Shown: piece by piece, positions 6,300 to 33,773 of the stretch
Numbering within the stretch: position 1 is the stretch's first letter
How the letters are laid out: the number at the start of each line of letters is the position of its first letter
DNA from: Candidatus Levybacteria bacterium CG2_30_37_29
GTDB taxonomy: Bacteria; Patescibacteriota; Microgenomatia; Levybacterales; GWA1-39-11
Direction: 5' to 3'
DNA: 64,000 nt
Assembly: GCA_001873215.1 (NCBI GenBank)
Contig: MNYS01000008.1
Location: 2,657-66,656 of the forward strand
Position numbers and translations under genes: made by a program
The notes under the pieces: model-generated
Database searches by the model: none
Told to the model about the DNA's origin: nothing
The model's input: only the letters and a program-made list of their open reading frames with translations

Positions 6300-7529
6300 A
6301 TGCTTATGGAAATTCCCCTTGCAGAGAGAATGCGACCTGTAACATTATCACAATTTGTCGGGCAAGATCACCTTGCAGGAATTGGCGGGCCAATAAGAAG
6401 CATGATTGAAAATAGGAAAGTCACTTCAATGATTTTATGGGGTCCTCCGGGAGTCGGCAAAACAACTCTTGCTCATATAATCGCTTCGTCAATTGACGCA
6501 AATTTTGTTTTTTTCTCAGCCGTAACAAGCGGAGTAGAGGATGTACGAAAAGTAATTAAACAAGCAAGGATAGACATTGAAAACAACAAGAAGCAAACAG
6601 TGCTTTTTGTCGACGAAATTCATAGATTTAATAAATCTCAACAAGACGGTTTTTTACCTTACGTTGAAGACGGAACAATAATTTTAATTGGTGCAACAAC
6701 TGAAAATCCGGGATTTCGCGTCAACGCGCCTCTTATTTCAAGAAGCCAAGTTTATAAATTGTCAGAACTTGCAGACGTGGATATAAAGAAAGTAGTCGTG
6801 CGAGCAATTAAATTTTATAAAAAAAATAAATGGGACAAAAATGCTCTGGATCATATCATAAAACAAGCAAACGGAGACGCCAGAAATGCGATAAATGCCA
6901 TAGAACTCGCCGCATCAATTTCAAAAAGCGTAACTCTTGAAATTGCTGAAGTCGCCGTTCAGCAAAAAGCAATTTATTATGACAAAAAAGGGGATTTTCA
7001 TTACGATACGATTTCCGCATTCATTAAATCGATGCGGGGAGGCAATCCTGACGCAACTCTTCACTATTTGGCGCGTATGATAAAGTCAGGCGAAGACCCG
7101 CTTTTTATCGCACGAAGAATGGTTATCTTTGCGAGTGAAGATATAGGCAACGCTCAACCTACAGCACTTGTTGTTGCGACGAGCTGCATGCAAGCCGTAC
7201 ATATGATAGGAATGCCTGAATCCCAGCTTATTTTAGCGCAAACAGCAACCTATCTTGCAACTGCAAAAAAATCTATTGCTTCAACAAGCGGAATTTTTGA
7301 AGCTCTATCTGACATAGATGAAACAAGACTTGAGCCTATTCCTTTGCATCTTCGAAACGCAGCAAACAAAGTTATGAAACAATTTGACTACGGAAAAGGA
7401 CATGTACGCTATCCGTGGCTTGTTGAGAAAGAAACCAAACAAAGAGTAGAACAGGCCATGCCTGCCGGCAGGCAGGAATATATGCCAAAAAATCTAAAGG
7501 GGAAAGTTTACTACAAGCGAGATTGGTAA
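6300..7529 (+). CDS. rarA: replication-associated recombination protein A (AAA+ ATPase)
   Basis: Walker A GPPGVGKTT, Walker B LFVDEIHRFNK, and the MgsA C-terminal region. Carries an 18-nt palindrome insertion near the 3' end (see findings). Confidence 0.85.
   Translation: MLMEIPLAERMRPVTLSQFVGQDHLAGIGGPIRSMIENRKVTSMILWGPPGVGKTTLAHIIASSIDANFVFFSAVTSGVEDVRKVIKQARIDIENNKKQTVLFVDEIHRFNKSQQDGFLPYVEDGTIILIGATTENPGFRVNAPLISRSQVYKLSELADVDIKKVVVRAIKFYKKNKWDKNALDHIIKQANGDARNAINAIELAASISKSVTLEIAEVAVQQKAIYYDKKGDFHYDTISAFIKSMRGGNPDATLHYLARMIKSGEDPLFIARRMVIFASEDIGNAQPTALVVATSCMQAVHMIGMPESQLILAQTATYLATAKKSIASTSGIFEALSDIDETRLEPIPLHLRNAANKVMKQFDYGKGHVRYPWLVEKETKQRVEQAMPAGRQEYMPKNLKGKVYYKRDW
7478..7495. repeat. 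GC-rich palindrome TGCCTGCCGGCAGGCAGG (copy 1 of 5), inside rarA
   Basis: Perfect palindrome encoding MPAGRQ in frame. Identical core to the copies at 29680, 31804, 32226 and 33744. Confidence 0.8.
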
Positions 7530-7546
7530 TTGTGTATTATTAATTT

Positions 7547-8416
7547 ATGGGTAAACTTCTTAAAGCAGTAGCTGTTTTAATTGTTCTATATTTTGCAATT
7601 TCTTATTACATTGCTAGTAAAATAACTGAAGAAACTGCAAGAAATATTGACGTATCCGCTGATTTTATTGCTCCTAATTCTGAGAATGTTTCTTTTTTTA
7701 CTACAGATAAACTTACGCTGAAAGGATGGTGGTTTGAACCATCAAGAAAGAAGGTTATCGTTTTCGTGTCGGGGATTTTAGATAATAGAACGAATGCTGG
7801 ATACTATGGTGTAGATTTAACTCGCGAGTTACTTGCAAAGGGATACGGTGTTTTACTTTATGACACTCGCGCAAGAGGGGAGTCTCAAGGCACTGTGCGC
7901 GGAAAAAACGAAGAACTTGATGTAATCGCAGTTGTAAATTATCTTAAACAAAAAGGAGTAGAACCTAAAAATATCGGGATTATTTCATTTTCTTCGGGTG
8001 CATCAGCAACACTCATGGCAATTGACAAAATAAATGACATAGGACCTGTTGTAATCGATAGTTCCCCAACATTTTTTAAACGCGTAACTGACAATATTTT
8101 AATAAAGGAGCAACATGTTCCGTCTTTTATAATTCCGGGTGTATATTTTATGACTAAATTTGCGTTCGGAGTTGACATAAATTCGATTAAGCCAATTGAT
8201 CATGTTGAAAAAGTACCAAATAGGGTTTTTCTCTATCTCCATTGCGCAAATGACACAAGCATACTTCCAGAAAACAGTAAGGAACTTTTGACAAAATCCA
8301 ATTCGAAAAGTAAACTCGTGCTTTTTCCAAAAGGTAAACACGTAGAAACCTATAAAAAGAATCCAGAGATGTATAGAAAAGAAGTTTTCAGTTTTTTAGA
8401 CAAAGCAATGAAGTAA
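7547..8416 (+). CDS. alpha/beta-hydrolase fold protein (membrane-anchored)
   Basis: GxSxG nucleophile elbow (ISFSSGAS) and N-terminal TM. Confidence 0.55.
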   Translation: MGKLLKAVAVLIVLYFAISYYIASKITEETARNIDVSADFIAPNSENVSFFTTDKLTLKGWWFEPSRKKVIVFVSGILDNRTNAGYYGVDLTRELLAKGYGVLLYDTRARGESQGTVRGKNEELDVIAVVNYLKQKGVEPKNIGIISFSSGASATLMAIDKINDIGPVVIDSSPTFFKRVTDNILIKEQHVPSFIIPGVYFMTKFAFGVDINSIKPIDHVEKVPNRVFLYLHCANDTSILPENSKELLTKSNSKSKLVLFPKGKHVETYKKNPEMYRKEVFSFLDKAMK

Positions 8417-8436
8417 TTACTTTAGGTTATTGAATA

Positions 8437-8967
8437 CTATTTACTAATAGTTACGGATCCGTCAGTAAAGGAAGCTTTATATTGCTGTTTTAATTCAATT
8501 TTTGAAAGATCATCTGCAATCAATTTATTAATCACACCTTGCGCTAAAGAAGAAAGTATCGGATTATTCGGAAGCGATCCAAATTGAATGCTTAGATTTG
8601 TTGCATTTGGTACACTTCCCGTTAAATCAACTCCCGCGGTAACATAAAATGAAGGAGTAATTGACCCAAGATTTTTTTTACCTGAAAAGTGGGCGAGTCC
8701 TTTTGTAAAACAAATTTTACCGTCTTCAACTTGTCCTCCAATATAATTCTGGGCTAAGGTTGTTGCCTCACCATCAGTTATGGTAATTGAACCCTTTTCT
8801 AATGCGTCTCCTATTTCCTTATCACTTCTTACCCCTGCGGCTTGACTTTGACACTGCGGTGCTTGTCCGAGCAAAGCTGCCGCTCCCGCTCCTGCGCTTC
8901 CTACAACAATTACACCTAGTACCATAAAAATAATTGCAATAGCTCCGAATCCTTTTTGGCTTCCCAT
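8437..8967 (-). CDS. hypothetical secreted/anchored protein
   Basis: ORF with N-terminal TM segment. No family recognised. Confidence 0.35.
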   Translation of the reverse strand: MGSQKGFGAIAIIFMVLGVIVVGSAGAGAAALLGQAPQCQSQAAGVRSDKEIGDALEKGSITITDGEATTLAQNYIGGQVEDGKICFTKGLAHFSGKKNLGSITPSFYVTAGVDLTGSVPNATNLSIQFGSLPNNPILSSLAQGVINKLIADDLSKIELKQQYKASFTDGSVTISK

Positions 8968-9031
8968 ATTTAACCTTTATACTTTTTTAGCCCGATTTTG
9001 TCAAGCGTTTAAAGATTTATATTTTTTTTGT

Positions 9032-9352
9032 TTAGAGCAATTTAAAATTATGGGCAGTAAAAAACAGTGTAATAATAACAACACCTAGCAGCGTAACCAC
9101 AAAAAGAGAATTGAGCGATCTTCTTAGAAAACCTTCAGGATGCTTTTGGGGTAATAGATAAAACATTGCGGTAGAAATAGCATACAGGTCTATTGCAAAA
9201 ATGCTTTTTGATGTCCAGTGATGACCGGAAAAATTTTTTAACCAATCTTTTAGAGGAACTGATAATTCCGCCCATATAGTAATAATAACGACAAAAGCAA
9301 TTGTTATTATTGCCGCATACGCGGATGAAATAATTAATTTTTGTTTATTCAT
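9032..9352 (-). CDS. small integral membrane protein
   Basis: ORF with 3 predicted TM segments. Confidence 0.35.
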   Translation of the reverse strand: MNKQKLIISSAYAAIITIAFVVIITIWAELSVPLKDWLKNFSGHHWTSKSIFAIDLYAISTAMFYLLPQKHPEGFLRRSLNSLFVVTLLGVVIITLFFTAHNFKLL

Positions 9353-9361
9353 AAAAATATA

Positions 9362-9874
9362 TCAGCTAGTTGCTCCCCAGCGCGCCGCAGCGGAAATTAT
9401 AAATCCCATCGCACCGATAAGAAGACCAAGAATAGCAACGAGTCCTGAAAGCCGAATGGCAAAACTACGAAGCTTTAAATGATCCATATCCTTATTCTCG
9501 AGGAGGGTAATGAATAACACCGTCACGGCAATCGGAATAATGAATAGAAAAATATGCTCTTTTGTTTCCATGATGATATTATGCGCCCATGGCGCAAGAC
9601 CGCTTTTGATTACAGGCTTTACAAGCGTTCCATAATAAACAACGTAGTAATATCCACCGGCAACCCAGCTTATAATAAAAGCAGAAACGCCTATTAATGC
9701 TGTTACAAACTTGCTCTTGAGTGAAGAACTATTATCTTTAAATTTTCCTAGAAGCCATAAAAATGCATCAATTCCGATAATAGCAAAGCCAAGGTGAATG
9801 CCTATAAGAACGGGTTTGTTTTGAAGTATGGAAATTATATCCATAAAACAATAGTAAACAAAAAAATACCACAA
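9362..9874 (-). CDS. integral membrane protein
   Basis: ORF with 4-5 TM segments. An alternative ATG lies at 9844. Confidence 0.35.
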   Translation of the reverse strand: MWYFFVYYCFMDIISILQNKPVLIGIHLGFAIIGIDAFLWLLGKFKDNSSSLKSKFVTALIGVSAFIISWVAGGYYYVVYYGTLVKPVIKSGLAPWAHNIIMETKEHIFLFIIPIAVTVLFITLLENKDMDHLKLRSFAIRLSGLVAILGLLIGAMGFIISAAARWGATS

Positions 9875-9925
9875 TGCAAGTTAGCATTAATTCTTTATAA
9901 AGATAATCCTGATATAATATGGGAT

Positions 9926-10927
9926 ATGGCATTAATTGATGATGTACGAATAAAAGTTAAGGCTGGAAACGGAGGAAACGGAGCAAAATCTTTTCTTACT
10001 ATTACCGGAAATCCGAAAACATTTGCTGACGGAGGAAATGGCGGGCGGGGTGGAAGCGTCTATTTTCAAGCCTCAAATAACATTTCGGATTTAAGTCAAT
10101 TCCGTTTTACTAAAGTAGTTGCTGCAAAAAATGGTCAGAACGGAATGAAAAAAAATCTATTCGGAAAAAAAGGCGAAGACGCGCTTATTCTCGTTCCACC
10201 CGGAACTCAAATTATTAACGAATCGATAGATGAACAGACGGAAATTATAGACCTTGACGTTCCAATCCTTATAGCAAAAGGCGGAGGAGGCGGGCAGGGA
10301 AATCATAATTACAAGCCTGATGCCAGACGCTACGTTCCGCAAAATGAAGTTGGAGGGGCAGGAGAAGAAAAAGACTTACATTTGATATTAAATTTAATCG
10401 CTGATATTGGTCTTATCGGTCTTCCTAATGCAGGAAAAAGTTCGCTTTTAAAAATTCTCACAAATGCAACACCAAAAATCGGAGATTATCTTTTTACGAC
10501 ACTTGAGCCAAATCTCGGAACGGTTCCTGCCAGCCATGATTCGCAAGGCGATGCAGGCGGGGGTAAAATTATTCTTGCAGACATTCCGGGGCTTATTGAG
10601 GGAGCATCTCTTGGCAAAGGGTTAGGTGTAAAATTCCTAAAGCATATTGAGAAAACAAAAATTCTTATGCACTGTATAGACGCACAGGATGCGGATATTC
10701 TCAAAACTTACGAGACAGTACGACGTGAATTTAAAGAATATAGCCAAAAACTTCTTGAAAAAGAGGAAATTATTTTAATTACAAAAAAAGATCTTGTGAG
10801 CTCTAAAAAATTAAAAGAACAAATCACTCTTTTGAAAAAATTTAAGAGGAAAATCCAGCCCGTATCAATTTATGAAGAAACAAGCATTAACACGCTCAAG
10901 GAATTAATCGAATCTTTCAAAATGTAG
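9926..10927 (+). CDS. obg: GTPase Obg
   Basis: Gly-rich Obg fold (GNGGNGAKSF, GGNGGRGGSVYF) followed by the G-domain GLIGLPNAGKSSLL. The start was moved to the in-frame ATG at 9926 to avoid overlapping the upstream membrane gene. Confidence 0.85.
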   Translation: MALIDDVRIKVKAGNGGNGAKSFLTITGNPKTFADGGNGGRGGSVYFQASNNISDLSQFRFTKVVAAKNGQNGMKKNLFGKKGEDALILVPPGTQIINESIDEQTEIIDLDVPILIAKGGGGGQGNHNYKPDARRYVPQNEVGGAGEEKDLHLILNLIADIGLIGLPNAGKSSLLKILTNATPKIGDYLFTTLEPNLGTVPASHDSQGDAGGGKIILADIPGLIEGASLGKGLGVKFLKHIEKTKILMHCIDAQDADILKTYETVRREFKEYSQKLLEKEEIILITKKDLVSSKKLKEQITLLKKFKRKIQPVSIYEETSINTLKELIESFKM

Positions 10928-10957
10928 GTTTTAACCCAAAAATAGTATATTTACAAC

Positions 10958-11407
10958 ATGGAAATTATTGTCAGACCTTTAAAATTAGAAGATTACGAAC
11001 AGGTAAAAAACGTAGACATCTTAACTCAAATTCAATATTTGGGCGAAAACTGGGAAAATAATGAAAATAAGTTAATTTCTAAAAAATCCGAGTTCGAAAC
11101 TAACGCGAATACAGGTTTTTCACTTGTTGCTGAAATAAACGAAAAATTAGTAGGATTTCTTTTTGCTCACGAAACGCTCCCATTTCCGGGCACTCTACAT
11201 ATTAGACACATTGCTATATTACCAGAACACCAAGGTAAGGGAATAGGCGTTAAGCTTTACGAAAAACTTGTAGAAATTGCAAAAGCTAAAAATATACAAA
11301 GAATTGAATCATATATAAACGACGACAATCCTAATTCTCAAAAACTTCACGAAAAAGTAGGATTTAGATTAAGAAAGTGGTGGAGAGGAGAATTGAGAAT
11401 AAAATAA
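10958..11407 (+). CDS. GNAT-family N-acetyltransferase
   Basis: Acetyl-CoA binding motif HQGKGIGVKLYEKLVE. Confidence 0.65.
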   Translation: MEIIVRPLKLEDYEQVKNVDILTQIQYLGENWENNENKLISKKSEFETNANTGFSLVAEINEKLVGFLFAHETLPFPGTLHIRHIAILPEHQGKGIGVKLYEKLVEIAKAKNIQRIESYINDDNPNSQKLHEKVGFRLRKWWRGELRIK

Positions 11408-11499
11408 CCAACGAAAAACTGCAGACCGATGCAGAAAAAATCGGAAAGTTTTAATGCTGTGGGCTAGGTGGGACTCGAACCCAAACTTAATCCGCTTTC

Positions 11500-12198
11500 T
11501 TAAAAACGTTTGGTATACGTATTGTCCTGAAGCGCTTTAACTCCACTTGCCTCCATCTTCTCTCTAAGCGCAATATTACCGGCAAAAGGCTCCCTCGTTT
11601 TTAGCTTCCCAAAAAAATCTTTGTATTTAGGATTAACTATTCCCAAAACTTTCTCTGCAGAGACAAAAAGAACTTTTATGTCTCTAGCGTAAAACTCGTT
11701 CAATATCTGTCTGAATTCCGGATCATCGTTTCCAAGTAATGTCCCAAGTTTGACAAAAGTTACAACAGATCTTTCAATATGGTAATCGTTTGTGACCATT
11801 GCAATTGGCCCTTTCCAGTCGTTATCAACTGCCATCATTACCATTTCCTTAAATTCGTCACGGGTACTTCTGGATTTTTCCTGAAGAGTTATACGCTTAG
11901 GATCAACACCGTGTTTTTCCAGCTGTTGAGCATATACTTTTGCATGGGAAGTTTTCGTCTGGTTATCGATAGAATTTGTTATTATCGGCGCGTTTGGAAA
12001 AAGTTTCGCCATTTCAGCCGCCGCAAGCATTCTATATACGCCGCCTAAATAACCGTATGCATTACCATCTGCAAAATCACCATCAAAAATAGTAGTTGCC
12101 CGCAGACGCTTTACATTTCCTTCTTTGTCAACAACAGGGGCAATTCCGCCGCTCATAAGAAAAAGAATTTGGGGCTCACCTCCGATAAGCTGAACCAC
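11500..12198 (-). CDS. hypothetical Rossmann-like protein (DUF)
   Basis: The ORF as tracked (to 12279) runs into tRNA-Leu on the same strand. A GTG at 12198 is the first start clear of the tRNA. Confidence 0.4.
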   Translation of the reverse strand: MVQLIGGEPQILFLMSGGIAPVVDKEGNVKRLRATTIFDGDFADGNAYGYLGGVYRMLAAAEMAKLFPNAPIITNSIDNQTKTSHAKVYAQQLEKHGVDPKRITLQEKSRSTRDEFKEMVMMAVDNDWKGPIAMVTNDYHIERSVVTFVKLGTLLGNDDPEFRQILNEFYARDIKVLFVSAEKVLGIVNPKYKDFFGKLKTREPFAGNIALREKMEASGVKALQDNTYTKRF

Positions 12199-12250
12199 CT
12201 CGTTTTTGAGAAGTTCCGGTTCGGGTGTATTTTCTCGATTCTCTTTCATG

Positions 12251-24358: not shown

Positions 24359-25774
24359 ATGAACGAATTACCGACATCACATTTTTCTGAATTGCAAAGT
24401 CAATTAAGACAACTGAGAAAAAATTATAGCATTCCTACCTTTGAGATTTCACCGATGATGAAAAGATCGGACAACCCTTCTATATTCAAAGAGGGCGAAA
24501 TATTTAGCGGATTACTTACTACAAAGAATGCCATGGCTTGCGTCACACTAGTCGCTTCATCTCATACTCCCCCCACTGTTTCTACGGATCAATTTTTATC
24601 TATAGCAAGCGATGTATTTGCAATCAACAGTTCTTTACCAATAGATACCGACATATCCATTTTAGCTCCTCAGGTTATTGTCTGGTGGGGCAAGAATGAT
24701 ACATCAGAGATAGATAGTGATTTTTCTAAATTATATAATTTAGACTCTTTAAATCGTCAAGAATTCATTAGATTAATTTCAGATGAAACAATCTTAGCAG
24801 TAAAACTAATAAAAAAAATTAAACAATCAGCTACAATATGGGGTTCATGGGGAAATGGATCCGATAATGAAAGAGTTTTTACCGGTAGAAGTAGAGGAGG
24901 TCCGACTAATAAAATAGGGCATACTCATGTAACGCATTTTGATGAGGCCAGAAAAATTTCTATTCCTAGACTCCAACAAACAGATGCCAAGGATGCAGTA
25001 AATTTTTACTCTCCTTGGGTAACACTTGTGATGGAAAAGTTTGGTGGGGATTTCTCTAATTTTATCAATCAATCTGTTAAAAACGATACTATTGATATTC
25101 CAGAATTTACAATAGAACAGACAAATATGGATTTAAGTACATCGGGCCATCATGATTTTCATAATGGATTTGAAATAACCTTCTCAAGCCCTGCAAAGTA
25201 TGCAAAGGTGGTGGATATGCTTATTTCAATAGGAGGAAAATCAGAAATTTTATATAAAGATTTATTGTTGTTATATGAAGAATTTTATAAGGATTTATTT
25301 ATGAAAAAATCTACAGATGAAACGTATAATCATGGTTATTTAAAATTGAAATCATACGGTTTTTCTCAAAGAACGGCAGAAAAAATGTTAGGATTTTTAT
25401 TTTCAATTAGACCTACCAATATTCAGATTTCAAATTGGATAGAACAAATGAGTAAGTATAAAAATGTAGACGTAAATTTACTTCTAAATATAGCAAACAG
25501 ATACGCTCACGTGTCAAAAAGAATAAGAAAAAATAAATCTTATAACACGACAGTGAATAGTTTAGTATATGATACTTATCGAGATAAAGAGGAAATTGAA
25601 AATATTAAAACAACTTGGCCTGAACACGCAAGCTACTGGTATCTTATTAATGATTATAAATTATCAGGCGACGAAATACTAGTTAATACTCTTAAACTTT
25701 TTCCTCTAATAGGGACTAGTGTCACTGGGCCAGAAAGAATATTGGGAGGAATAATTAAACGACCCCTAAAATGA
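24359..25774 (+). CDS. hypothetical 471-aa protein
   Basis: Long intact ORF, no recognised family. His cluster GHTHVTHF. Confidence 0.4.
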   Translation: MNELPTSHFSELQSQLRQLRKNYSIPTFEISPMMKRSDNPSIFKEGEIFSGLLTTKNAMACVTLVASSHTPPTVSTDQFLSIASDVFAINSSLPIDTDISILAPQVIVWWGKNDTSEIDSDFSKLYNLDSLNRQEFIRLISDETILAVKLIKKIKQSATIWGSWGNGSDNERVFTGRSRGGPTNKIGHTHVTHFDEARKISIPRLQQTDAKDAVNFYSPWVTLVMEKFGGDFSNFINQSVKNDTIDIPEFTIEQTNMDLSTSGHHDFHNGFEITFSSPAKYAKVVDMLISIGGKSEILYKDLLLLYEEFYKDLFMKKSTDETYNHGYLKLKSYGFSQRTAEKMLGFLFSIRPTNIQISNWIEQMSKYKNVDVNLLLNIANRYAHVSKRIRKNKSYNTTVNSLVYDTYRDKEEIENIKTTWPEHASYWYLINDYKLSGDEILVNTLKLFPLIGTSVTGPERILGGIIKRPLK

Positions 25775-26575: not shown

Positions 26576-27694
26576 CTAACTGTCAGCTCCTACTGCATCG
26601 GCGATATTTTTGAAGCCGTCTATTGCAAGAAGCTTTACCAGGCCTGAATTTATTTCATGAATTAACTGCGGACCTTCAAAAATCATACCGGTAATTAATT
26701 GGACTAAGGATGCGCCTTTTTTTATTTTTACATAGGCGTCTTGGGCGCTAAAAACCCCGCCGCACCCAATAATTGCGAATCTCTTTTTATAATTCTTGTG
26801 TGCAAATTTTATCAGCTCATTTGAGCGTTCAAAAGTAGGCTTTCCGCTAAAATTTCCAATTCTAAACTTTATTACCTCACTTTTTATTAAAGACGGATGA
26901 GAACGGTCTTTTTGTAAATTACCAAAAATGACTCCTTTGGAAGAATGCTTTGCAATCACATCAAGCATAATTTTTATCACCCGAGTGCTGTTTGATATTG
27001 GCATTTTGACAAAAAACGGCTTTTTAAGCCTTAGCTTGTCAATTTCAGACAGTAAATCTTCCAAAGTCTTTTTTTGTGTAAAAAGTAACATTTCCAAAAA
27101 GATTTGGGCAACTGATGTTGAGTTCATAATAACTATTTTTTACGCGAGCTTTTTCAAAAATCTTAAGAGCGCAAATTATGTCTTCAACGCTTTGTTTTTG
27201 ATTTAATTTTGCACTATTTGTTCTACCAATGCTTATTCCTATAGGAATTTCAAAATTTAATTATCCTAATGTTTGTGCAGTTTCTTCTGCCCCGAAATTT
27301 CTAAATCCCTTATTACCATCAGCGATTTTGATTTTGGTAGTCTGCCCAATTGCGGTCTCGGATTTCCTTCATAAGCCATGTTGGTAATTGTTCCAACTGT
27401 TTGAAAACCAAATCCTACACTTAGTGTGATTTGGGTAAGACGCGTTTCATAATCAAACCCTGCGGCAAGACCAATAGGATTGGGGAAATTTATCCCGGAC
27501 AATTCTTGATGCAAAACCGAGTTAGTTATTTTAAATTGCGATGAAATAATTTTTCTTAATCTTTTATTCTGTCCTAATTTCTCCCCAAAAGCAGTTGCTC
27601 CAATGTGAACTTTTTGGGGATCGGTTCTAAAGAAAACAGGATTTAGAATTCCACTATAAGTTTTTTTTGTAATTGTCGGTATTAATCTTCGCAC
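26576..27694 (-). pseudogene. pyrD: dihydroorotate dehydrogenase (pyrD) disrupted by frameshift
   Basis: The N-terminal piece (27266-27694) has FPNPIGLAAGFD. The C-terminal piece (26576-27127) has IIGCGGV…GASLVQ. The two are colinear but in different frames, with a 138-nt gap. Confidence 0.6.
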
Positions 27695-27805: not shown

Positions 27806-28876
27806 ATGGGACTTTTACGTTTACTATTCGCGCTCACCATAGTAATCTTTCACACGGGAGATATTTTCGGGTACAGGATATTTAACAGCAGACTTGCAAT
27901 TCTTTCTTTTTTCGTCATTTCAGGCTTTTATATGGCTTTTATTTTGGATAGAAAATATTTTAAAAAGAAGCATTCATTCAAGTTATTTATTGTAAACAGA
28001 TTTCTTAAAATTTACCCTATTTATTGGGTTTCACTCTTAATCATTGTCCTTTTTGGGGTTGTAAAATATTTATTTAACGCTGGTGGTCAAGATAATTTCA
28101 TTTCTCATTTTTTTCAGTATTCAACACACATAAATGGATTGGCAATGCTTTTATATTCTGTTAATTTTATTACAAGAAATATTACGCTTGTTGTAAATTC
28201 TGACTATTTTTTCAAGCCTGATATGACACCGGGATATTTACTTGTTCAGCAAGCTTGGACTCTACAAATAGAATTATTATTCTACGTTCTTGCACCATTT
28301 CTTATGTTTTTTTCAAAAAAACATTTTTTATTGCTTTGCTCTTTATATTTAGTACTTGCCCATATCGTTTTAGCAAATTTTATAAGCAAAAACCAAATCT
28401 TTCTTAGCGCGCAATTTGTTTACTACTTGGTTTTTTTCTTAATGGGCATGTCTTCATATAGATTTTTATTTGGTTTTTTAGAAAAGAACAAAGCAAAACA
28501 ACAAATTTTTAAAACAATATTTGGGGCAGCCGTTATCATTATTCTGATTTATAATTACACACCATTATCAATGCTTTCCGTAACACCGGTTTTTGAGCTA
28601 GTTTTCTCCTTTATTTTTGCGTTATTTGTACCTATTATTTTCTCAGTAACAAAAAATTTTAAATTTGATAGGTTTTTGGGCGAATTGTCTTATCCTCTTT
28701 ATATAATTCATTTTATTATTGTAAAGATGTTTGTGAATTTTACGCTTGTTGATACAAATTTAAAAAAGCTTATGATAGTAACTATATCGCTTGTTATATC
28801 GTACAGTCTTTATAAATTTATTGAATTTCCCATAGACAAATTCCGCCAAAAAAGGGTAGCATCTTCATCGGAATGA
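27806..28876 (+). CDS. acyltransferase-3 family membrane O-acyltransferase
   Basis: 10-11 TM segments with N-terminal FHTGDIFG-type motifs of the Acyl_transf_3 family. Confidence 0.65.
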   Translation: MGLLRLLFALTIVIFHTGDIFGYRIFNSRLAILSFFVISGFYMAFILDRKYFKKKHSFKLFIVNRFLKIYPIYWVSLLIIVLFGVVKYLFNAGGQDNFISHFFQYSTHINGLAMLLYSVNFITRNITLVVNSDYFFKPDMTPGYLLVQQAWTLQIELLFYVLAPFLMFFSKKHFLLLCSLYLVLAHIVLANFISKNQIFLSAQFVYYLVFFLMGMSSYRFLFGFLEKNKAKQQIFKTIFGAAVIIILIYNYTPLSMLSVTPVFELVFSFIFALFVPIIFSVTKNFKFDRFLGELSYPLYIIHFIIVKMFVNFTLVDTNLKKLMIVTISLVISYSLYKFIEFPIDKFRQKRVASSSE

Positions 28877-28921
28877 ACACGGCTTTACTTTTTCTTCCCT
28901 ATTTTATATGCTAAAGATGAA

Positions 28922-29593
28922 ATGCTAACCAATGTCCGCGAACGTTTTTTGCAAATTCGCATAAGACGAGACGAAAAAGAAATTAAAATTGGATTTTTCA
29001 TAACAGGCATAATAATAATTATTCTTTTGGCCAACGTTGTCTATCTCAATTTTTTTCTTTTAAAAAATAAAGGTGTTGCAAATACGAATATTTCACCTAG
29101 AAAAAGTTCTGTTGATACTATTATTCCATCTCCAACACAAATTCAAGCTCAAAATCAAACTTTAAGTCCTACGCCTATTCCTCCAACCATTGCCATACAA
29201 AATACTTATCGAACAACGACATCAAATACAATAAAAGATTATTTTATTCCCCTAGGCTCGGGGACAAATCAATCAAGCGACTGGGTGGATGTCCCGGGAG
29301 CACAAGTCGCTATTGATTTAGGTCAATATCAAAATGTTAAAGAAGTTCATTTTGAGGCGTCTGTCACTATGCCCACCTCAAACGGATCTGTTTATGTACG
29401 GCTTTTTAACGTTACGGATAAACATCCTGTATGGAATTCCGACGTTAGCGGAGTAGGGAATTCAATATATACTCTTACTTCGCCGGCTATTATTTATGAT
29501 AAGAGCGCAAAAGTGTATCAAGTACAAATGAAAACGCAAATGCAGGTTGCGGCAAATCTTACTCAATCAAGAATCCATGTCACCCTTGAGTAA
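28922..29593 (+). CDS. hypothetical membrane-anchored secreted protein
   Basis: TM anchor, Thr/Pro-rich linker, beta-rich C-terminal domain. Confidence 0.35.
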   Translation: MLTNVRERFLQIRIRRDEKEIKIGFFITGIIIIILLANVVYLNFFLLKNKGVANTNISPRKSSVDTIIPSPTQIQAQNQTLSPTPIPPTIAIQNTYRTTTSNTIKDYFIPLGSGTNQSSDWVDVPGAQVAIDLGQYQNVKEVHFEASVTMPTSNGSVYVRLFNVTDKHPVWNSDVSGVGNSIYTLTSPAIIYDKSAKVYQVQMKTQMQVAANLTQSRIHVTLE

Positions 29594-29623
29594 CAATAAA
29601 CATTTTGAGCGGGAGACGGGAAT

Positions 29624-29655
29624 CGCTCAATTTCTACGAAATTGCGCGCTTTTTT
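29624..29655 (+). terminator. Rho-independent terminator
   Basis: CGCTCAATTTC-tac-GAAATTGCGCG stem followed by CTTTTTT, 30 nt after the stop at 29593. Confidence 0.55.
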
Positions 29656-29679
29656 CCAACAAAAAGAGCGAACCCGCTA

Positions 29680-29697
29680 CCTGCCTGCCGGCAGGCA
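29680..29697. repeat. GC-rich palindrome CCTGCCTGCCGGCAGGCA (copy 2 of 5)
   Basis: Located 27 nt downstream of the tRNA-Gly 3' end, minus-strand sense, before an AGCGGGUUCGCU hairpin with a U-run. Confidence 0.8.
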
Positions 29698-29724
29698 TCT
29701 TCCTTGACCTGCCCGCTAATACTG

Positions 29725-29796
<72 letters not shown>

Positions 29797-29941
29797 ATAA
29801 GCTCTGCAGGCGGGCAAGGAAGCATTCTTAGGCGCACAGTGAAACGAGCACCGCAAGCTCTTGCTTACCGGTGAATTACTCCCGCTGAAAAAACTTGTTT
29901 TTTCAGCACCAGGTTCTCGCAGTGCTCGAAACTGGCGCAGT

Positions 29942-30196
29942 CTATGTTTTTAAACTCATTACTAATTTTAATTTTCTTTCTCTTGGCCAACTTTTAATTT
30001 CCATTTCGCGTTTCAATGCCTGTGACTTTGTTTTATATTCTTCTGAATGAACTAATTCAACAGGCAACTTACCTTTTATTGATTTTGCGCCCTGCTTTCC
30101 AAAATTATGTTGCCACAATCTGTTTTTTATATTTAATGTATATCCTGTATAAAAAGAGCCGTCACTACATTCGACAATATAAACATAATGCTTCAT
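29942..30196 (-). CDS. small GIY-YIG nuclease-family protein (YhbQ/UPF0213-like)
   Basis: The YVYIVECSDGSFYTGYT…RLWQHN…GAK catalytic motif set fills essentially the whole 84 aa. Confidence 0.75.
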   Translation of the reverse strand: MKHYVYIVECSDGSFYTGYTLNIKNRLWQHNFGKQGAKSIKGKLPVELVHSEEYKTKSQALKREMEIKSWPRERKLKLVMSLKT

Positions 30197-30232
30197 TGTT
30201 CTATCTTAGTTATAAGCTCTGCGAAAATCTAG

Positions 30233-30324
30233 CGTGCCAATTTCAACCTGCCTGAACATAGACTGTGCCACATACGAACAACGTGAGTACGTGGCACTGA
30301 AATTTTAGTAAAAATTTCAGTGCC
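30233..30324. repeat. tRNA 3'-flank repeat with two hairpins
   Basis: The 43-nt core at 30241-30283 is identical to 30584-30626. It is followed by the GGCACTGAAATTTT-agta-AAAATTTCAGTGCC hairpin, whose 3' arm overlaps the tRNA-Phe 3' end. Related to 6058-6114. Confidence 0.6.
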
Positions 30325-30393
30325 GAGACCAAGAATTGCACTCGGATAGCCTGTTCTTCAGACAGGTGCCTTGACTACCTCGGCCATCTCGGC
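30321..30393 (-). tRNA. tRNA-Phe(GAA)-like
   Basis: GCCGAGA/UCUCGGC acceptor and anticodon loop CUGAAGA. The D-stem is 3 bp with a Ser/Leu-like D-loop (GAGGUAGUCAA), and the T-loop UGCAAUU is non-canonical. Discriminator A. Confidence 0.55.
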
Positions 30394-30403
30394 AAAAAAA
30401 TAC

Positions 30404-30454
30404 TATATTCGATTGCGAATTCAATGCAATCTCAGACAGTGATTGCATTATATC
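30404..30454. repeat. 51-nt IS-target/IS-end-like repeat (intact copy)
   Basis: TATATTCGATTGCGAATTCAATGCAATCTCAGACAGTGATTGCATTATATC. The first 31 nt are 29/31 identical to 47105-47135, and the tail matches 48255-48271. Confidence 0.55.
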
Positions 30455-30461
30455 AAATGTG

Positions 30462-30534
30462 TGGGCGGTGCAAGACTTGAACTCGCGACATCTTCGGTGT
30501 AAACGAAGCGCTCTACCAGCTGAGCTAACCGCCC
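30462..30534 (-). tRNA. tRNA-Val(TAC)
   Basis: GGGCGGU acceptor, anticodon loop UUUACAC, GCGAGUUCAAGUCUUGC T-arm. Confidence 0.85.
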
Positions 30535-30583
30535 TTTAAACTTTCCTTAGCACAAACCAACATTTGAACAAACCATGTGTTAG

Positions 30584-30626
30584 TTTCAACCTGCCTGAAC
30601 ATAGACTGTGCCACATACGAACAACG
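30584..30626. repeat. tRNA 3'-flank repeat core (second copy)
   Basis: 43/43 nt identical to 30241-30283, ending 10 nt before the tRNA-Leu(GAG) 3' end. Confidence 0.6.
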
Positions 30627-30635
30627 GGAGAAATG

Positions 30636-30722
30636 TGCCGAGGACAGGACTTGAACCTGCACGTCTTATTTAAGGACACAAGAACCTCAATCTTGCGTGT
30701 ATACCAATTTCACCACCTCGGC
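30636..30722 (-). tRNA. tRNA-Leu(GAG), long variable arm
   Basis: GCCGAGG acceptor, anticodon loop UUGAGGU, 17-nt variable arm, GCAGGUUCAAGUCCUGU T-arm. Confidence 0.8.
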
Positions 30723-30776
30723 AAGCTTCGGCGCAAACACCCAACTTGTACAGTTAGTATTTTACCAAACATAGTC

Positions 30777-31757
30777 ATGTTAAAACAAGAACACATTGCT
30801 ATAATGTTTTTAATGGATGTTATTTTTATATTTTTTACAATTCTTGGTCTATCTCTTTTTGAAATAATTACAAGCATTGACAATGCAATTATTAATGCTG
30901 AAGTGCTCGGAGGAATGAGCAATAGAGCAAAAAAATGGTTTTTGACATGGGGAATAGTATCATCTATTTTCATTGTCAGAGGAGTCTTACCCTTTCTTAT
31001 TCTTTATGCAACCGTTCCACAACTTGGTGTTGTAAATACCATAACCGCAGCTTTTTCATCAGATCCCAATATTGCTGAAACCATAAAAGAATCATCTCAT
31101 GTTCTGCTTATTGCAGGGGGGGTCTTTTTAATTTTTCTTTTTTTTCACTGGCTTTTCTTAGAACCTAAAAATTTTGGCCTTAGGGGCGAAAGGTTTTTCC
31201 ATTCAAAAGGTGTTTGGTTTTATGCAATCGTATCAATACTTTTAACAGTAATTGTGTGGTTTGCATTCAAACAAAACAATCCATTGCTTCAGTTTGGCGC
31301 CGTTGTAGGATCTACAATGTTTTTTATAATTCATGGATTCAAAGGATATGCAGAAGAGCAGGAAAAAAAACTTTTATCGGTTGGCGTATCTGATTTTGCA
31401 AAAATTGCATACCTTGAAATACTGGACGCAAGCTTTTCAATTGATGGAGTAATCGGGGCTTTTGCATTTACCTTTGCAATTCCTCTTATACTTATAGGGA
31501 ATGGCTTAGGAGCAATCGTATTGAGGCAAATAACAATTAGCAATATAGAACGGATAAAAAAATATAAATACCTAAAAAACGGAGCAATGTATTCGATTTT
31601 AATACTTGGTATTGTAATGCTTTTGCATAGCTTTAGAATTGAGATTCCTGAATGGTTATCACCCGTTGCAACATTTGCAATTGTTGGTTACTTTTTTTAC
31701 AAGTCAAATATTGACCTTAAAACAATTACTGACTTATCTGAACCAAATAAAAAGTAG
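30777..31757 (+). CDS. TerC/DUF475-family integral membrane protein
   Basis: SIDNAIINAEV motif and ~8 TM segments. The track ORF starts earlier (TTG at 30564), inside the tRNA genes. Trimmed here to the first ATG past them. Confidence 0.55.
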   Translation: MLKQEHIAIMFLMDVIFIFFTILGLSLFEIITSIDNAIINAEVLGGMSNRAKKWFLTWGIVSSIFIVRGVLPFLILYATVPQLGVVNTITAAFSSDPNIAETIKESSHVLLIAGGVFLIFLFFHWLFLEPKNFGLRGERFFHSKGVWFYAIVSILLTVIVWFAFKQNNPLLQFGAVVGSTMFFIIHGFKGYAEEQEKKLLSVGVSDFAKIAYLEILDASFSIDGVIGAFAFTFAIPLILIGNGLGAIVLRQITISNIERIKKYKYLKNGAMYSILILGIVMLLHSFRIEIPEWLSPVATFAIVGYFFYKSNIDLKTITDLSEPNKK

Positions 31758-31782
31758 AGAAGTCCCACTTCATTTTTCAAAG

Positions 31783-31874
31783 TGCCCGAGAGAGGACTCG
31801 AACCCTGCCTGCCGGCAGGCAGGCTCCACACCATTGCTGGTACAGCGTTCTGAACGCTGCTTGTCTACCTGCCA
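31783..31874 (-). pseudogene. tRNA-Leu(CAG) 3' three-quarter fragment with a 20-nt palindrome in the T-stem
   Basis: D-arm, CAGCG-UUCAGAA-CGCUG anticodon arm, long variable arm and CUCGGGC-A acceptor 3' strand are all present. Removing CCTGCCTGCCGGCAGGCAGG (31804-31823) restores a GGAGG/CCUCU T-stem. There is no matching 5' acceptor strand locally. Confidence 0.6.
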
Positions 31875-31881
31875 AAGCATG

Positions 31882-31962
31882 TGCCAGGAGGGGGACTCGA
31901 ACCCCCACATCTTGCGATACACGGTTCTGAACCGTGCTTGTCTACCATTTCAACATCCTGGC
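31882..31962 (-). tRNA. tRNA-Leu(CAG), intact
   Basis: GCCAGGA/UCCUGGC acceptor, anticodon loop UUCAGAA, 13-nt variable arm, GGGGGUUCGAGUCCCCC T-arm. Begins 4 nt after the GIY-YIG stop. Confidence 0.8.
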
Positions 31963-31966
31963 TTAT

Positions 31967-32212
31967 TTATGTTGCGCTATTTATCTCTTGTATTATCTCA
32001 CGACCAAACCCTGATTTAAAGAACTTCTCGAGTTTAATTGCGTCCCCTAGCGACACACAGATTTCTACATGAATAAGCTTAAATGGTGCTAAATGTTTTA
32101 TGGAAGCTGTTTTATTATTGTTGTGTTCGGAAAGTCTTCTTAAGATATTATTCGTATAACCTTTATAAAAAACGTCCTTTTTTTGACTTTTAATAACATA
32201 TACGTAATACAT
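31967..32212 (-). CDS. small GIY-YIG nuclease-family protein (second copy)
   Basis: The YVYVIKSQKKDVFYKGYT…RRLSEHN motif set fills essentially the whole 81 aa. The start ATG directly abuts the tRNA 5' fragment. Confidence 0.75.
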   Translation of the reverse strand: MYYVYVIKSQKKDVFYKGYTNNILRRLSEHNNNKTASIKHLAPFKLIHVEICVSLGDAIKLEKFFKSGFGREIIQEINSAT

Positions 32213-32213
32213 A

Positions 32214-32261
32214 TGCGTGTCTACCCCTGCCTGCCGGCAGGCAGGATTCCAACACTCGGGC
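32214..32261 (-). repeat. tRNA 5' fragment (acceptor plus D-arm) with palindrome in the D-loop
   Basis: GCCCGAG-UG-UUG-GAAUCC[UGCCUGCCGGCAGGCAGG]GGUAGA-CAC-GCAU. The acceptor strand is the exact complement of the 3' strand of the fragment at 31783. Near-identical to the plus-strand unit at 33727-33773. Confidence 0.6.
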
Positions 32262-32291
32262 TCATACGTATTGTACCAATACTAATTTTTC

Positions 32292-32324
32292 TTGACAAGA
32301 AATAGCAATTTATGTAATTATAAT
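32292..32324 (+). promoter_or_regulatory. putative promoter
   Basis: TTGACA at 32292 with TAATTA/TATAAT about 17-21 nt downstream. The ATG at 32332 is very close, suggesting a short leader or leaderless transcript. Confidence 0.3.
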
Positions 32325-32331
32325 GTATTAA

Positions 32332-32925
32332 ATGAAAAAGCTTGTTCTGCTCGCAAGTTACTCGATTTTTATGCCGATTTTTTTACTCGCCTTAATTATA
32401 TATTCCATGTCGCTTACCAAAGTGGCTGTCGCAAATTTTAACGACGCAAACACAGAGGTTTTGGGTACAGAAACAGCATCATCTCATCTCATTTCCAATA
32501 ATACAAATAGGGATATTATTGCTGCATCCGGTGAAAAAGGGCGTACTACAATTTTGAAAGAATTTTTGAACAAATATAATTCGCCTCTTTTACCATACGC
32601 GGTGCACATTGTTTCTGCGGCAGACTTTTACGGAATTGACTACCGTCTTCTTCCGGCAATTGCACTTCAAGAAAGCACGCTTTGCAAAAAAATTCCAAAA
32701 GAATCTTATAATTGTTGGGGATTTGGAATTTATGGAGGAAATGTTACACGATTTACAAGTTATGAGGATGCAATAGAAACAATTTCAAAAACTTTGGCAA
32801 AAGAATACAAAGCAAAAGGCCTTGAACATCCGACAGAAATAATGACAAAATACACGCCGCAAAGCAATGGAAGCTGGGCGAAAAATGTAAGCTACATAAT
32901 GGACAGAATAAGCCCCTCGCTTTAG
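32332..32925 (+). CDS. membrane-anchored secreted protein, possible peptidoglycan-hydrolase (lytic transglycosylase/lysozyme-like) domain
   Basis: TM anchor. Central LLPAIALQESTL…CWGFGIYGG region paralogous to the gene at 33137-33685. Confidence 0.35.
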   Translation: MKKLVLLASYSIFMPIFLLALIIYSMSLTKVAVANFNDANTEVLGTETASSHLISNNTNRDIIAASGEKGRTTILKEFLNKYNSPLLPYAVHIVSAADFYGIDYRLLPAIALQESTLCKKIPKESYNCWGFGIYGGNVTRFTSYEDAIETISKTLAKEYKAKGLEHPTEIMTKYTPQSNGSWAKNVSYIMDRISPSL

Positions 32926-33136
32926 GTATTTCTTAAACTTCAATCTACTTTAAGGTGATTTTGAACATTTTTGTGCATAAAACTACATATTATGGCCTGT
33001 AGTAAAGTACTTGACAAACCTATAGTTCTATGATAAGATACTGATTAGATCCTAAGGTAGCCCAAAACTACTTTAGGATTTTTTAATGGTTTGAGTAATC
33101 CTCAAGTTTCTATTTGTCATAGGCACTTGAATAATT

Positions 33137-33685
33137 ATGAAAACTACAAAAACTTTTTTAATCCTTGTAGCACTTCTTATTGCTACACTTACATTTTCCA
33201 AAAATGCATACGCGGAAGGTACTGCTGTACCCTCAGCAAAGCTTTTGTCATTTGACAGCTCAAAAATCATTGAAAAGGACGTACGCAGTATTGCAATTGA
33301 AAATATTTTCAAAAAATACAATTCTCCACTTCTAGGCCTTGGCGCAACTTATGTAAAATACGCTGATAAATACGGCGTGGACTGGAAGCTTTTACCTTCA
33401 ATATCAGGGCTTGAATCAAGCTTTGGACAATTTCTTATGCCCGGCTCTTATAATGGTTACGGATGGGGCGGAGGCTACATATATTTTGAAAGTTGGGAAG
33501 ACGGAATTGACATAATTAACAAAACTTTGCGCGGCAACTACATGGATAAATGGGGCGCAACCGACGTTTGGAGTATTGGTCCTATTTATGCAGAGTCAAA
33601 AACATGGTCTGTGAGGGTAAACGGCTTTATGAATGAAATCGAAGCAGAATACAAATCTCTTCTCGCAGTCACCCCCACAATCTAA
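33137..33685 (+). CDS. paralogue of 32332-32925
   Basis: Shares NSPLL…YGVDWKLLPSISGLESSFGQ…GYGWGG with the upstream gene. Confidence 0.35.
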   Translation: MKTTKTFLILVALLIATLTFSKNAYAEGTAVPSAKLLSFDSSKIIEKDVRSIAIENIFKKYNSPLLGLGATYVKYADKYGVDWKLLPSISGLESSFGQFLMPGSYNGYGWGGGYIYFESWEDGIDIINKTLRGNYMDKWGATDVWSIGPIYAESKTWSVRVNGFMNEIEAEYKSLLAVTPTI

Positions 33686-33726
33686 CTCTTTTTCCAAAGC
33701 TGGTTAAACTGTATAATACCTTTATT

Positions 33727-33773
33727 GCCCGGGTGGTGAAATTCTGCCTGCCGGCAGGCAGGAGTATACACGC
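33727..33773 (+). repeat. tRNA 5' fragment with palindrome in the D-loop (plus-strand copy)
   Basis: GCCCGGG-UG-GUG-AAAUUC[UGCCUGCCGGCAGGCAGG]AGUAUA-CAC-GCAU, followed by CGCAA-GACC-UUGCG and a U-run. No 3' half is present. Confidence 0.6.

Follow-up and report, generated by a model that had tools for sequence, protein, structure and literature searches.

A 20-base palindrome coupled to mini GIY-YIG nuclease genes and to disrupted and replaced tRNA genes in a Levybacteria contig and in other bacterial genomes

A 64,000-nucleotide stretch of contig MNYS01000008.1 from Candidatus Levybacteria bacterium CG2_30_37_29 (hereafter the window) holds five copies of a GC-rich 20-base palindrome, CCTGCCTGCCGGCAGGCAGG (PAL), and, judged from sequence comparison, this palindrome is both physically and evolutionarily coupled to one clade of genes for very small GIY-YIG nucleases. 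The unit observed is a cassette in which a nuclease open reading frame (ORF) of 80-95 amino acids (aa) is followed by a complete tRNA gene, the whole lying within or beside a resident gene for the same kind of tRNA. The comparisons set out below show PAL moving as a precise 20-bp unit and the nuclease gene travelling with a tRNA gene, and on the same grounds the window's resident tRNA-Leu(CAG) and tRNA-Gly(GCC) genes have each been broken, their function passing to a foreign tRNA with the same anticodon. We lean, by a slight balance, towards the reading that PAL is a cis-acting hairpin or cruciform site and a non-autonomous, solo-spreading partner of a selfish SLX1/UPF0213-type GIY-YIG cassette in tRNA genes, acting by a mechanism that we infer.

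The window is AT-rich (30-39% GC) and contains 11 tRNA genes; its proteins are nearest to those of Patescibacteria, with named homologs in Levybacteria, Gottesmanbacteria and Parcubacteria at 72-77% identity. A search with the 18-mer core of PAL, allowing up to two mismatches, finds five copies where 100 dinucleotide-preserving shuffles give an expectation of zero, and a scan of all perfect palindromes in the window shows these five to be the only GC-rich ones. An initial annotation of the window had described five identical perfect palindromes in an AT-rich setting. The number and the setting are confirmed, but only copy 3 (31804-31823) and copy 4 (32226-32245) are perfect 20-mers, the remaining three being near-identical: copy 1 (7457-7476; CATGCCTGCCGGCAGGCAGG) has one mismatch and a 16-nucleotide (nt) perfect core at 7459-7474, copy 2 (29680-29697) has a right arm one GGCA unit short, and copy 5 (33743-33762) begins TCTGCC, has one mismatch and retains a perfect 18-mer at 33744-33761. 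Four of the positions first given hold, whereas the copy in rarA had been placed 20 nt too high (at 7478-7495 for an 18-mer that lies at 7458-7475).

The contexts originally described proved sound. Copy 1 lies in frame within rarA (6300-7529), where it is translated as MPAGRQ. Copy 3 occupies the T-stem, directly 5' of G53-TTCGAGT, in what remains of the 3' part of the resident tRNA-Leu(CAG), and copies 4 and 5 are in D-loops, that of the resident tRNA-Leu(CAG) 5' fragment (GGAAT^GGTAGA) and that of a tRNA-Leu 5' fragment before tRNA-Leu(TAG). Copy 2 does lie 27 nt past the 3' end of an intact tRNA-Gly, and is actually inside a second, broken tRNA-Gly(GCC), after nt 44 in the variable loop. 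The region from 26.8 to 35.8 kb, with all four regional PAL copies, recurs in four independent assemblies at 99.8-99.98% identity, so these copies are no product of faulty assembly; one strain variant (L241) carries a 4-nt GGCA slippage that makes copy 2 a perfect 20-mer. The copy in rarA is also present in a fifth assembly.

The arrangement at tRNA-Leu(CAG) is read along the minus strand from 32298 to 31782. It opens with a promoter-like site (32270-32298; TTGTCA-17-TACAAT with an upstream TG, a consensus match only) directly upstream of what is left of the resident tRNA-Leu(CAG) at its 5' end (32213-32261; nt 1 to about 29). This 5' fragment runs from tRNA nt 1-16 through PAL copy 4 and GGTAGACACGCAT to the ATG of GIY-YIG ORF #2 (31967-32212), 13 nt downstream of PAL, which encodes 81 aa of catalytic domain alone and belongs to clade 1 as defined below. 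Four bases past its stop codon stands an intact, cassette-borne tRNA-Leu(CAG) (31881-31962; 53.8 bits), followed by CATGCTTT and a half-PAL remnant, GGCAGG (31873-31868). The half-site precedes the 3' fragment of the resident gene (31782-31873; nt about 20 to 85), that is, the rest of the tRNA from the D-arm onward, with PAL copy 3 in its T-stem. The promoter-like site probably drives a single transcript of fragment, PAL, ORF and tRNA, and TATAAT-like boxes are found at the corresponding place in many of the metagenomic loci described below.

When both PALs and the cassette are spliced out, a complete old tRNA-Leu(CAG) results, its acceptor strands matching. This reconstituted gene is identical at 75/85 positions, and at 44/45 over the first 45 nt, to the uninterrupted ortholog in the relative L244, whereas the functional tRNA-Leu(CAG) beside the ORF matches that ortholog at just 65/85, indicating that the resident gene was destroyed and that a foreign copy of the same anticodon took over. 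The earlier remark that taking PAL out brings back tRNA sequence is upheld, both here and at tRNA-Gly, where 70/73 positions agree with L244. Synteny around the DUF475 gene of the window is too poorly conserved among relatives to align the whole intergenic region, and empty sites were therefore taken from orthologous tRNA genes. L244 provides them because its tRNA-Leu(CAG) and tRNA-Gly are intact and free of PAL; no PAL was found in the L244 and L246 stretches. A search of relatives for empty sites, as had been suggested, thus succeeds for both tRNA genes, and it does so also for RarA, whose alleles occur with and without the insert.

On the plus strand, a tRNA-Leu 5' fragment with PAL copy 5 (33727-33790; nt 1 to about 40) is followed by an intact tRNA-Leu(TAG) (33826-33907) with no ORF between them, an architecture that recurs in L030 and L015. 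The fragments holding copy 4 (32213-32261) and copy 5 are 88% identical over 49 nt including PAL. Given this likeness and their membership of cassettes, the tRNA-linked copies are not independent insertions, and the view that they mark unrelated hosts gives way to one in which they belong to two nuclease-plus-tRNA replacement cassettes.

The resident tRNA-Gly(GCC) (29607-29885, minus strand) has taken up four insertions, whose removal gives the near-identity to L244 noted above. Besides PAL copy 2 in the variable loop, the D-loop has gained 38 nt (29829-29866), the anticodon loop 107 nt (29707-29813) and the T-loop about 45 AT-rich nt (29626-29672). The anticodon-loop insertion encloses an intact replacement tRNA-Gly(GCC) (29724-29796; 70 bits), bounded by the imperfect GC-rich inverted arms CCGCCTGC...GCGGGCAGG. 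These arms resemble the hairpin arms upstream of tRNA-Glu-linked nuclease genes in L207 and L233, and the D-loop insertion contains a hairpin, GCAAG-AG-CTTGC, like the inner stem of the clade-2 hairpins described below. GIY-YIG ORF #1 (29942-30196, minus strand; 84 aa) lies between tRNA-Phe and this tRNA-Gly complex, and its product is 36% identical to that of ORF #2 (alignment A1). L244 has an ortholog of ORF #1 at the same position of the tRNA operon, between tRNA-Phe and the intact tRNA-Gly, and L246 has no ORF there.

Several smaller repeats surround ORF #1. It is flanked by 48-nt imperfect inverted repeats (29901-29948 and 30255-30302; 75% complementary), and a 54-nt repeat that overlaps the second arm (30234-30287) recurs with 93% identity at 30577-30630, just past tRNA-Leu(GAG). 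The 54-nt repeat contains CCTGCCTG, half a PAL arm, beside a tRNA-Leu-like D-loop remnant; the L244 ortholog of ORF #1 stands without either the 48-nt or the 54-nt repeats. At 30293-30324 is a perfect 14-bp hairpin, GGCACTGAAATTTT / AAAATTTCAGTGCC, with a 4-nt loop, one arm of which takes in the 3' end of tRNA-Phe. In L246 (1300-1430, minus strand) an intact tRNA-Gly is followed by a duplicate of its own 3' fragment whose T-arm is broken up by a small hairpin other than PAL, CCGATGCAAATCGG; tRNA leftovers split by a hairpin therefore exist as well where there is neither PAL nor a nuclease gene close by.

The coupling of PAL to the nuclease genes is overwhelming when one starts from the nuclease. 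A profile built from 29 homologs of GIY-YIG #2 retrieved 541 metagenomic relatives, from which 80 loci were kept. An intact tRNA on the same strand begins between -35 and +61 nt from the end of the ORF in 59 of the 76 evaluable loci, most often tRNA-Leu, but also Asn, Glu, His, Lys, Gly and Arg, and the nuclease ORF often runs into the first ~20 nt of this downstream tRNA. On the other side of the ORF, 46/75 loci carry PAL 9-48 nt upstream of the start of the match, within a 5' tRNA copy. With PAL removed, this 5' copy is 92% identical to nt 1 to 22-55 of the adjacent intact tRNA, and perfectly so in 15/42 loci. PAL follows tRNA nt 22/23, the boundary between D-loop and D-stem, in 28 of 40 loci, and otherwise follows nt 11, 12, 15, 17, 18 or 24; the net insertion is exactly 20 nt in all 23 evaluable loci (23/23). 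The common architecture is tRNA nt 1-22, PAL, nt 23-30, the ORF and an intact tRNA. In some loci a 3' tRNA fragment additionally bears PAL at or inside its T-arm, or the intact tRNA is followed by another, nearly complete tRNA that contains PAL. The full architecture is also present in L038 (labelled WWE3), in L109 (labelled an uncultured gammaproteobacterium) and in the viral contig L156. The earlier pointer to the neighbouring GIY-YIG proteins as partners of PAL thus holds as regards linkage; that PAL is a site recognised by these nucleases is what the pattern suggests.

The nuclease genes fall into two clades. In clade 1, which is the nearer to ORF #2, nearly all genes are accompanied by exact PAL, whereas the distant clade 2 carries longer GC-rich hairpins at the same place, such as CCCGCCCGCCAxCGCAAGC...GCTTGC...GGCGTTGCGGGCGGG; nested clade-2 hairpins of about 45-50 nt occupy the D-arm of displaced tRNA fragments in L184, L200, L219, L229 and L235-L239. 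In L193 the arms of PAL enclose 18 extra loop bases. Across 35 distinct clade-1 ORFs, amino-acid identity is 57%, nucleotide identity 61% and third-position identity 45%, values at which the synonymous sites of the nuclease genes are saturated with change. In 32 of these 35 loci PAL does not differ by a letter, and the other three show one or two changes without compensation. The near-invariance of PAL, with its variants uncompensated while the ORFs diverge, places it under strong constraint on sequence and not on structure alone. All-against-all clustering of ORFs from 120 loci returned housekeeping families and GIY-YIG as the only recurrent neighbours; a transposase linked in cis was rejected, as no such family recurs in these loci.

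Both window proteins exceed the curated cut-off of Pfam PF01541 (GIY-YIG), with E-values of 1.9e-15 (#2) and 2.7e-17 (#1), and match that family alone, over residues 1-69 and 2-75 of 81 and 84 aa. PF01541 fills the proteins, and no separate DNA-binding domain is found in either. The GIY, YxG, R, H and E residues of the catalytic domain do not vary in the 29-homolog alignment, in which Y5, Y16, G18, R26, H30, E50 and E62 are invariant, and homologs are 70-123 aa long, most of them 79-100 aa. The A1 profile matches the UPF0213 structures 1zg2 and 1ywl at E about 1e-15 and the SLX1 structures 7cq2 and 4xlg at 1e-6 to 4e-4; among solved structures, BH0048 and EF2693 of the UPF0213 type are nearest, and SLX1, a structure-specific endonuclease, comes next. 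Profile matches of this kind assign the proteins to the GIY-YIG superfamily and to a UPF0213/SLX1-like subgroup, and no NCBIfam family matches either of them.

Beyond the window, the exact PAL 18-mer is present in more than 120 species among the matches listed; by our own estimate, a random 18-mer would give about ten matches in 596 Gb. The phyla include Patescibacteria, Bacteroidota (with seven cultured isolates), Omnitrophota, Planctomycetota, Nitrospirota, Elusimicrobia, Verrucomicrobia and others, and PAL is also contained in a single-cell genome and in 35 viral stretches. Agriterribacter humi YJ03, Winogradskyella echinorum KCTC 22026 and Flagellimonas yonaguniensis are among the isolates that carry it. 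The DNA that bears it is mostly AT-rich (median GC 42%). About 97% of exact copies are solo: only 3-4 of 167 genomic or viral copies adjoin a GIY-YIG ORF, and these are all alike, with a 5' tRNA fragment holding PAL, the ORF and an intact tRNA of the same kind.

The mobile unit is a sharply bounded 20-mer across 123 copies: the flanking C and G are kept in 98% and the sequence beyond is essentially random, with no longer inverted repeat around PAL. No target-site duplication (TSD) is seen at fixed offsets or in 23 exact filled-versus-empty comparisons. Direct repeats of at least 7 nt flank 18% of sites against 9% in a local control, an excess that is due to low-complexity intergenic DNA and not to TSD. 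As a target, no 4-mer is strongly enriched, T at position -1 alone being disfavoured. These properties, with presence and absence at orthologous sites, fit the tiny palindromic insertion element that the initial annotation had proposed. Longer elements bounded by PAL half-sites were also considered and none was found, solo half-sites being degenerate full copies; the GGCAGG remnant at 31868-31873 and the tRNA-Gly between related GC-rich arms are the sole hints of such elements.

PAL contains no stop codon in any frame, and long reading frames translate it almost always as LPAGRQ. Most of 120 close homologs of RarA are without the insert, including the nearest relatives of the window's protein (82% identity). 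The 11 carriers have it at at least two positions, other lineages showing it at the same site as in the window or at a displaced one. At the DNA level, L248 and L249 hold exact 20-mers and the other carriers hold copies with 1-2 mismatches; relative to empty alleles the net gain is 21 nt (7 codons), that is, the 20-mer and one frame-restoring base.

Two viral contigs, L126 (8616) and L149 (2284), have PAL in the variable loop of tRNA-Met. ARAGORN still calls the PAL-bearing gene in L149 as a 92-nt tRNA; the PAL hairpin may for this reason stand in for the long variable arm of class-II tRNAs, and a functional tRNA may tolerate it. Elsewhere PAL or a one-mismatch variant is part of a longer recurrent repeat (L078 around 5269 and 5648; L087 at 4015, 4959 and 5147), and such repeats stand before several genes, those in L078 including homologs of gatC and gatA. 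Contigs with the nuclease or with PAL in a tRNA are often very short or end at the element, as in L086 (Agriterribacter humi); these repeats seem to break short-read assemblies, and the elements are therefore probably under-counted.

How might a nuclease cassette and a palindrome of this kind work together? In our preferred reading, a nuclease that is probably dimeric would specifically recognise PAL extruded as a hairpin or cruciform. Nuclease breaks in tRNA genes would be mended by homologous recombination with conserved tRNA sequence as the homology arms, much as in homing by the phage enzyme SegB (see below), and this recombination would copy ORF and tRNA into new genomes and leave PAL-interrupted leftovers behind. 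PAL in the leftover copy would remove both a target and a recombination partner and so stabilise the cassette. PAL itself would be excised and reinserted precisely in trans, in the simplest case by its 20-nt hairpin being cut at the base and ligated into a nick or blunt break, which would explain exact ends without TSD. Insertions would persist solely where they are harmless, in dead tRNA pieces, intergenic DNA and protein surface loops, and those in proteins would be tolerated in the cysteine-free LPAGRQ frame after a +1 correction.

A number of points weigh against this scheme. A protein of 81 aa that is all catalytic domain and lacks a DNA-binding domain would hardly be expected to read 20 bp. 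Nor can PAL make the locus fully immune, since the D-loop and T-loop of the rebuilt functional tRNA remain uninterrupted. PAL and the ORF junction lie at widely varying distances from each other (1-38 nt, median about 12), which argues against a fixed geometry of recognition and cutting and led us to reject a type IIS-like arrangement. Co-occurrence of PAL and nuclease is known at the level of single loci, and some PAL-rich viral contigs have no nuclease gene in the examined stretches. Where free PAL copies would come from, and what enzyme would ligate them, is pure inference. Phages as carriers of the nuclease were likewise rejected, as a profile search of the viral contigs found no relative of GIY-YIG #2; the viral contig L156 nonetheless shows the full architecture.

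A bolder form of this idea, which we regard as tentative and rather doubtful, treats the cassette as a cleave-and-rescue element in which the mini-nuclease breaks an essential tRNA gene, PAL inactivates that gene and a replacement tRNA takes over, PAL being a 20-nt hairpin transposon. PAL would be ligated precisely into the break, or later into leftovers, inactivating the resident tRNA for good, and the host could not lose the cassette because it supplies the replacement of the same anticodon. A hydrolytic GIY-YIG enzyme would cut PAL at its base and, with a host ligase, paste it elsewhere; hairpin transposition would explain the identical 20-mer in the Candidate Phyla Radiation (CPR), Bacteroidota, Omnitrophota, Planctomycetota and other phyla.

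Alternatively, PAL could be a mere immunity insertion at the nuclease's own cut site in tRNA, in the manner of collaborative homing, so that the nuclease does not recognise PAL at all; it would cut the uninterrupted D-loop or T-loop, and PAL and ORF would spread together by gene conversion into homologous tRNA genes. This account reproduces exactly the order of tRNA nt 1-22, PAL, nt 23-30, ORF and intact tRNA. It draws on the placement of PAL at the two most conserved tRNA motifs, the D-loop (nt 22/23 in 28/40) and the T-arm (compare the T-loop target of SegB), and on its restriction to redundant copies beside an ORF with ill-defined boundaries, as is typical of free-standing homing endonuclease genes. 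We consider it unlikely all the same, because mere filler needs neither 20/20 identity while the ORFs saturate nor specificity for a clade, the functional tRNA of the same locus is still cleavable, and homology-based conversion cannot place the ~97% of copies that are solo at non-homologous sites, coding regions included.

That PAL is an independent repeat like repetitive extragenic palindromes (REPs) or miniature inverted-repeat transposable elements (MITEs), served by an unlinked enzyme and gathering in neutral DNA such as dead tRNA fragments, seems to us distinctly improbable. The preponderance of solo copies, a target preference amounting to 'not T' at -1, and the occurrence of PAL in phyla and viral contigs with no nuclease gene seen nearby would all suit such a repeat, as would the scarcity of neutral DNA in CPR genomes. 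A repeat of this sort does not predict, however, that PAL falls within a narrow interval before the ATG in 46/75 cassettes, mostly at the same tRNA position, nor that nuclease clade and hairpin type co-vary, and no transposase family is recurrent near PAL. Moreover, in 15 loci the tRNA segment that was duplicated has not yet diverged from the intact copy (100% identity), so PAL came with the cassette or immediately after it. The REP/MITE-like character first suggested does not extend to membership of either family: PAL has no TSD and bounds no longer element by its halves, as a MITE would; no HUH (Y1) transposase is among the recurrent neighbours in the 120 loci, which sets aside the REP system with its associated tyrosine transposase (RAYT); and a single perfect sequence shared by many phyla and found within tRNA genes and reading frames is no species-specific, imperfect intergenic REP.

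PAL might instead act as RNA, a hairpin in the 5' UTR of a nuclease mRNA transcribed from the tRNA promoter, where it would serve stability, processing or regulation or prevent misfolding of the leftover tRNA with the functional one. PAL always lies between the promoter-like site and the ATG, 8-27 nt upstream of the latter, the linkers are without an evident Shine-Dalgarno sequence, and the predicted hairpin is stable (-8 kcal/mol as DNA). For such a role compensatory changes would be expected, yet the sequence does not vary and no compensation is observed; PAL is found, besides, on the downstream side of tRNA, within 3' fragments and coding regions and between genes, and exact 20-bp insertion with empty sites shows that the DNA itself moves. 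We therefore judge an RNA role very unlikely. A split tRNA, trans-splicing or a bulge-helix-bulge intron was rejected because the PAL-bearing pieces are partial, the 5' and 3' pieces do not share a point of interruption, and a complete tRNA with the same anticodon stands alongside. A technical artefact (adapter, linker or chimera) has next to no probability: identical sequence with sharp ends and no TSD in the data of many projects is indeed how a ligated linker would look, but contiguous flanks restore tRNA sequence and intact reading frames, five independent assemblies agree, one with a natural slippage variant, isolate genomes and a single-cell genome hold PAL, and it is strongly associated with one gene family.

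Taken as a whole, the system behaves like a free-standing homing endonuclease gene of the SegB type joined to a REP/RAYT-like pairing of an enzyme with a dispersed palindrome. SegB is a free-standing GIY-YIG endonuclease of phages T4 and T6, encoded in tRNA gene clusters, with a 27-bp recognition site; it recognises a motif in the T-loop of tRNA, occurs widely together with tRNA genes, and cuts the tRNA genes of its own genome, driving recombination-dependent amplification of tRNA plus segB (PMC2330249; PMC13096335). As with SegB, a GIY-YIG gene lies among tRNA genes here, with a conserved tRNA motif as its likely target, and it would move or be amplified with the adjacent tRNA by homologous recombination and tolerate self-cutting. 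SegB, a phage protein, is roughly 220 aa long, whereas the proteins described here are catalytic domains of 77-95 aa, nearest to UPF0213/SLX1 and encoded on bacterial chromosomes of CPR and others; neither an invariant palindrome nor PAL-interrupted tRNA leftovers nor a solo dispersed repeat has been described for SegB. As in homing genes at large, the nuclease gene is in or beside its target family and is present or absent at orthologous loci (59/76 loci; L244 and L246), but the separate DNA-binding domain with a long recognition site that marks such genes is lacking.

In collaborative homing of cyanophages, the free-standing endonuclease F-CphI is paired with a psbA intron. As there, a nuclease gene stands beside a separate insertion that interrupts its target, the two spreading together. 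In the F-CphI system, however, the insertion is a self-splicing intron and the host gene stays functional; PAL cannot splice out, and at PAL loci function is rescued by a second, complete tRNA gene.

Other parallels concern the palindrome. In REP/RAYT systems, short palindromes are dispersed through the genome and a single-copy enzyme gene flanked by them presumably mobilises them in trans. PAL shares the dispersal and the enzyme gene flanked by the same palindromes; RAYTs, though, are HUH/Y1 enzymes, and REPs are imperfect, have a GTAG head, are species-specific and avoid genes, whereas PAL has no HUH enzyme, is perfect and identical across phyla, and enters tRNA genes and reading frames. Rickettsia palindromic elements, which are 100-150 bp long and confined to one genus, resemble PAL in the behaviour of its in-frame insertions, and we know of no enzyme partner for them. 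Fungal mitochondria contain the 'PstI palindromes' flanking tRNA genes of Neurospora and the GC clusters of yeast. Like PAL, these are highly conserved, short and GC-rich in AT-rich genomes, cluster at tRNA genes and are polymorphic, and they sit sometimes in frame (var1) in genomes rich in GIY-YIG genes; unlike PAL, they are organellar and of different sequence, and to our knowledge no defined nuclease partner and no tRNA replacement have been established for them. The nearest model for precise movement of a hairpin is the 'peel and paste' transposition of IS200/IS605, which passes through single strands and uses a covalent HUH tyrosine transposase: it too relies on recognition of a DNA hairpin and inserts without TSD or terminal inverted repeats. 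GIY-YIG enzymes, by contrast, hydrolyse DNA and would need a host ligase.

Full-text searches of the literature turned up no mention of the PAL sequence or of the LPAGRQ peptide, and no paper linking small GIY-YIG genes, hairpins and bacterial tRNA genes. Whether the mobility of the hairpin and the logic of disrupting and replacing a tRNA gene amount to something categorically new is a suggestion that we make with reserve and hold to be possible rather than probable. The very abundant, uncharacterised mini GIY-YIG proteins of the UPF0213/YhbQ type would gain their first functional context, as selfish nucleases that colonise and replace tRNA genes, and a 20-bp sequence invariant across bacterial phyla implies highly conserved protein-DNA recognition. 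The cassettes account for the broken tRNA genes, the duplicates of tRNA fragments and the fragmented assemblies that recur in CPR genomes, and PAL accounts for the recurring LPAGRQ insert in otherwise conserved proteins. If the hairpin is in truth cut and pasted by a hydrolytic nuclease, PAL would be the smallest mobile element known and its transposition chemistry one not described before; a nuclease paired with a rescue tRNA would likewise be a natural counterpart to engineered cleave-and-rescue gene drives.

Two further features of the window stand apart from the cassettes. Dihydroorotate dehydrogenase (PF01180) is encoded by two minus-strand ORFs, 26576-27127 and 27266-27694 (183 and 142 aa), separated by a 138-nt gap; the split is repeated in the independent assemblies L240-L243 and could reflect a split gene, a pseudogene or another insertion. 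An unrelated, perfect AT-rich palindrome of 20 nt, TCTAAATTATATAATTTAGA, lies at 24725-24744.

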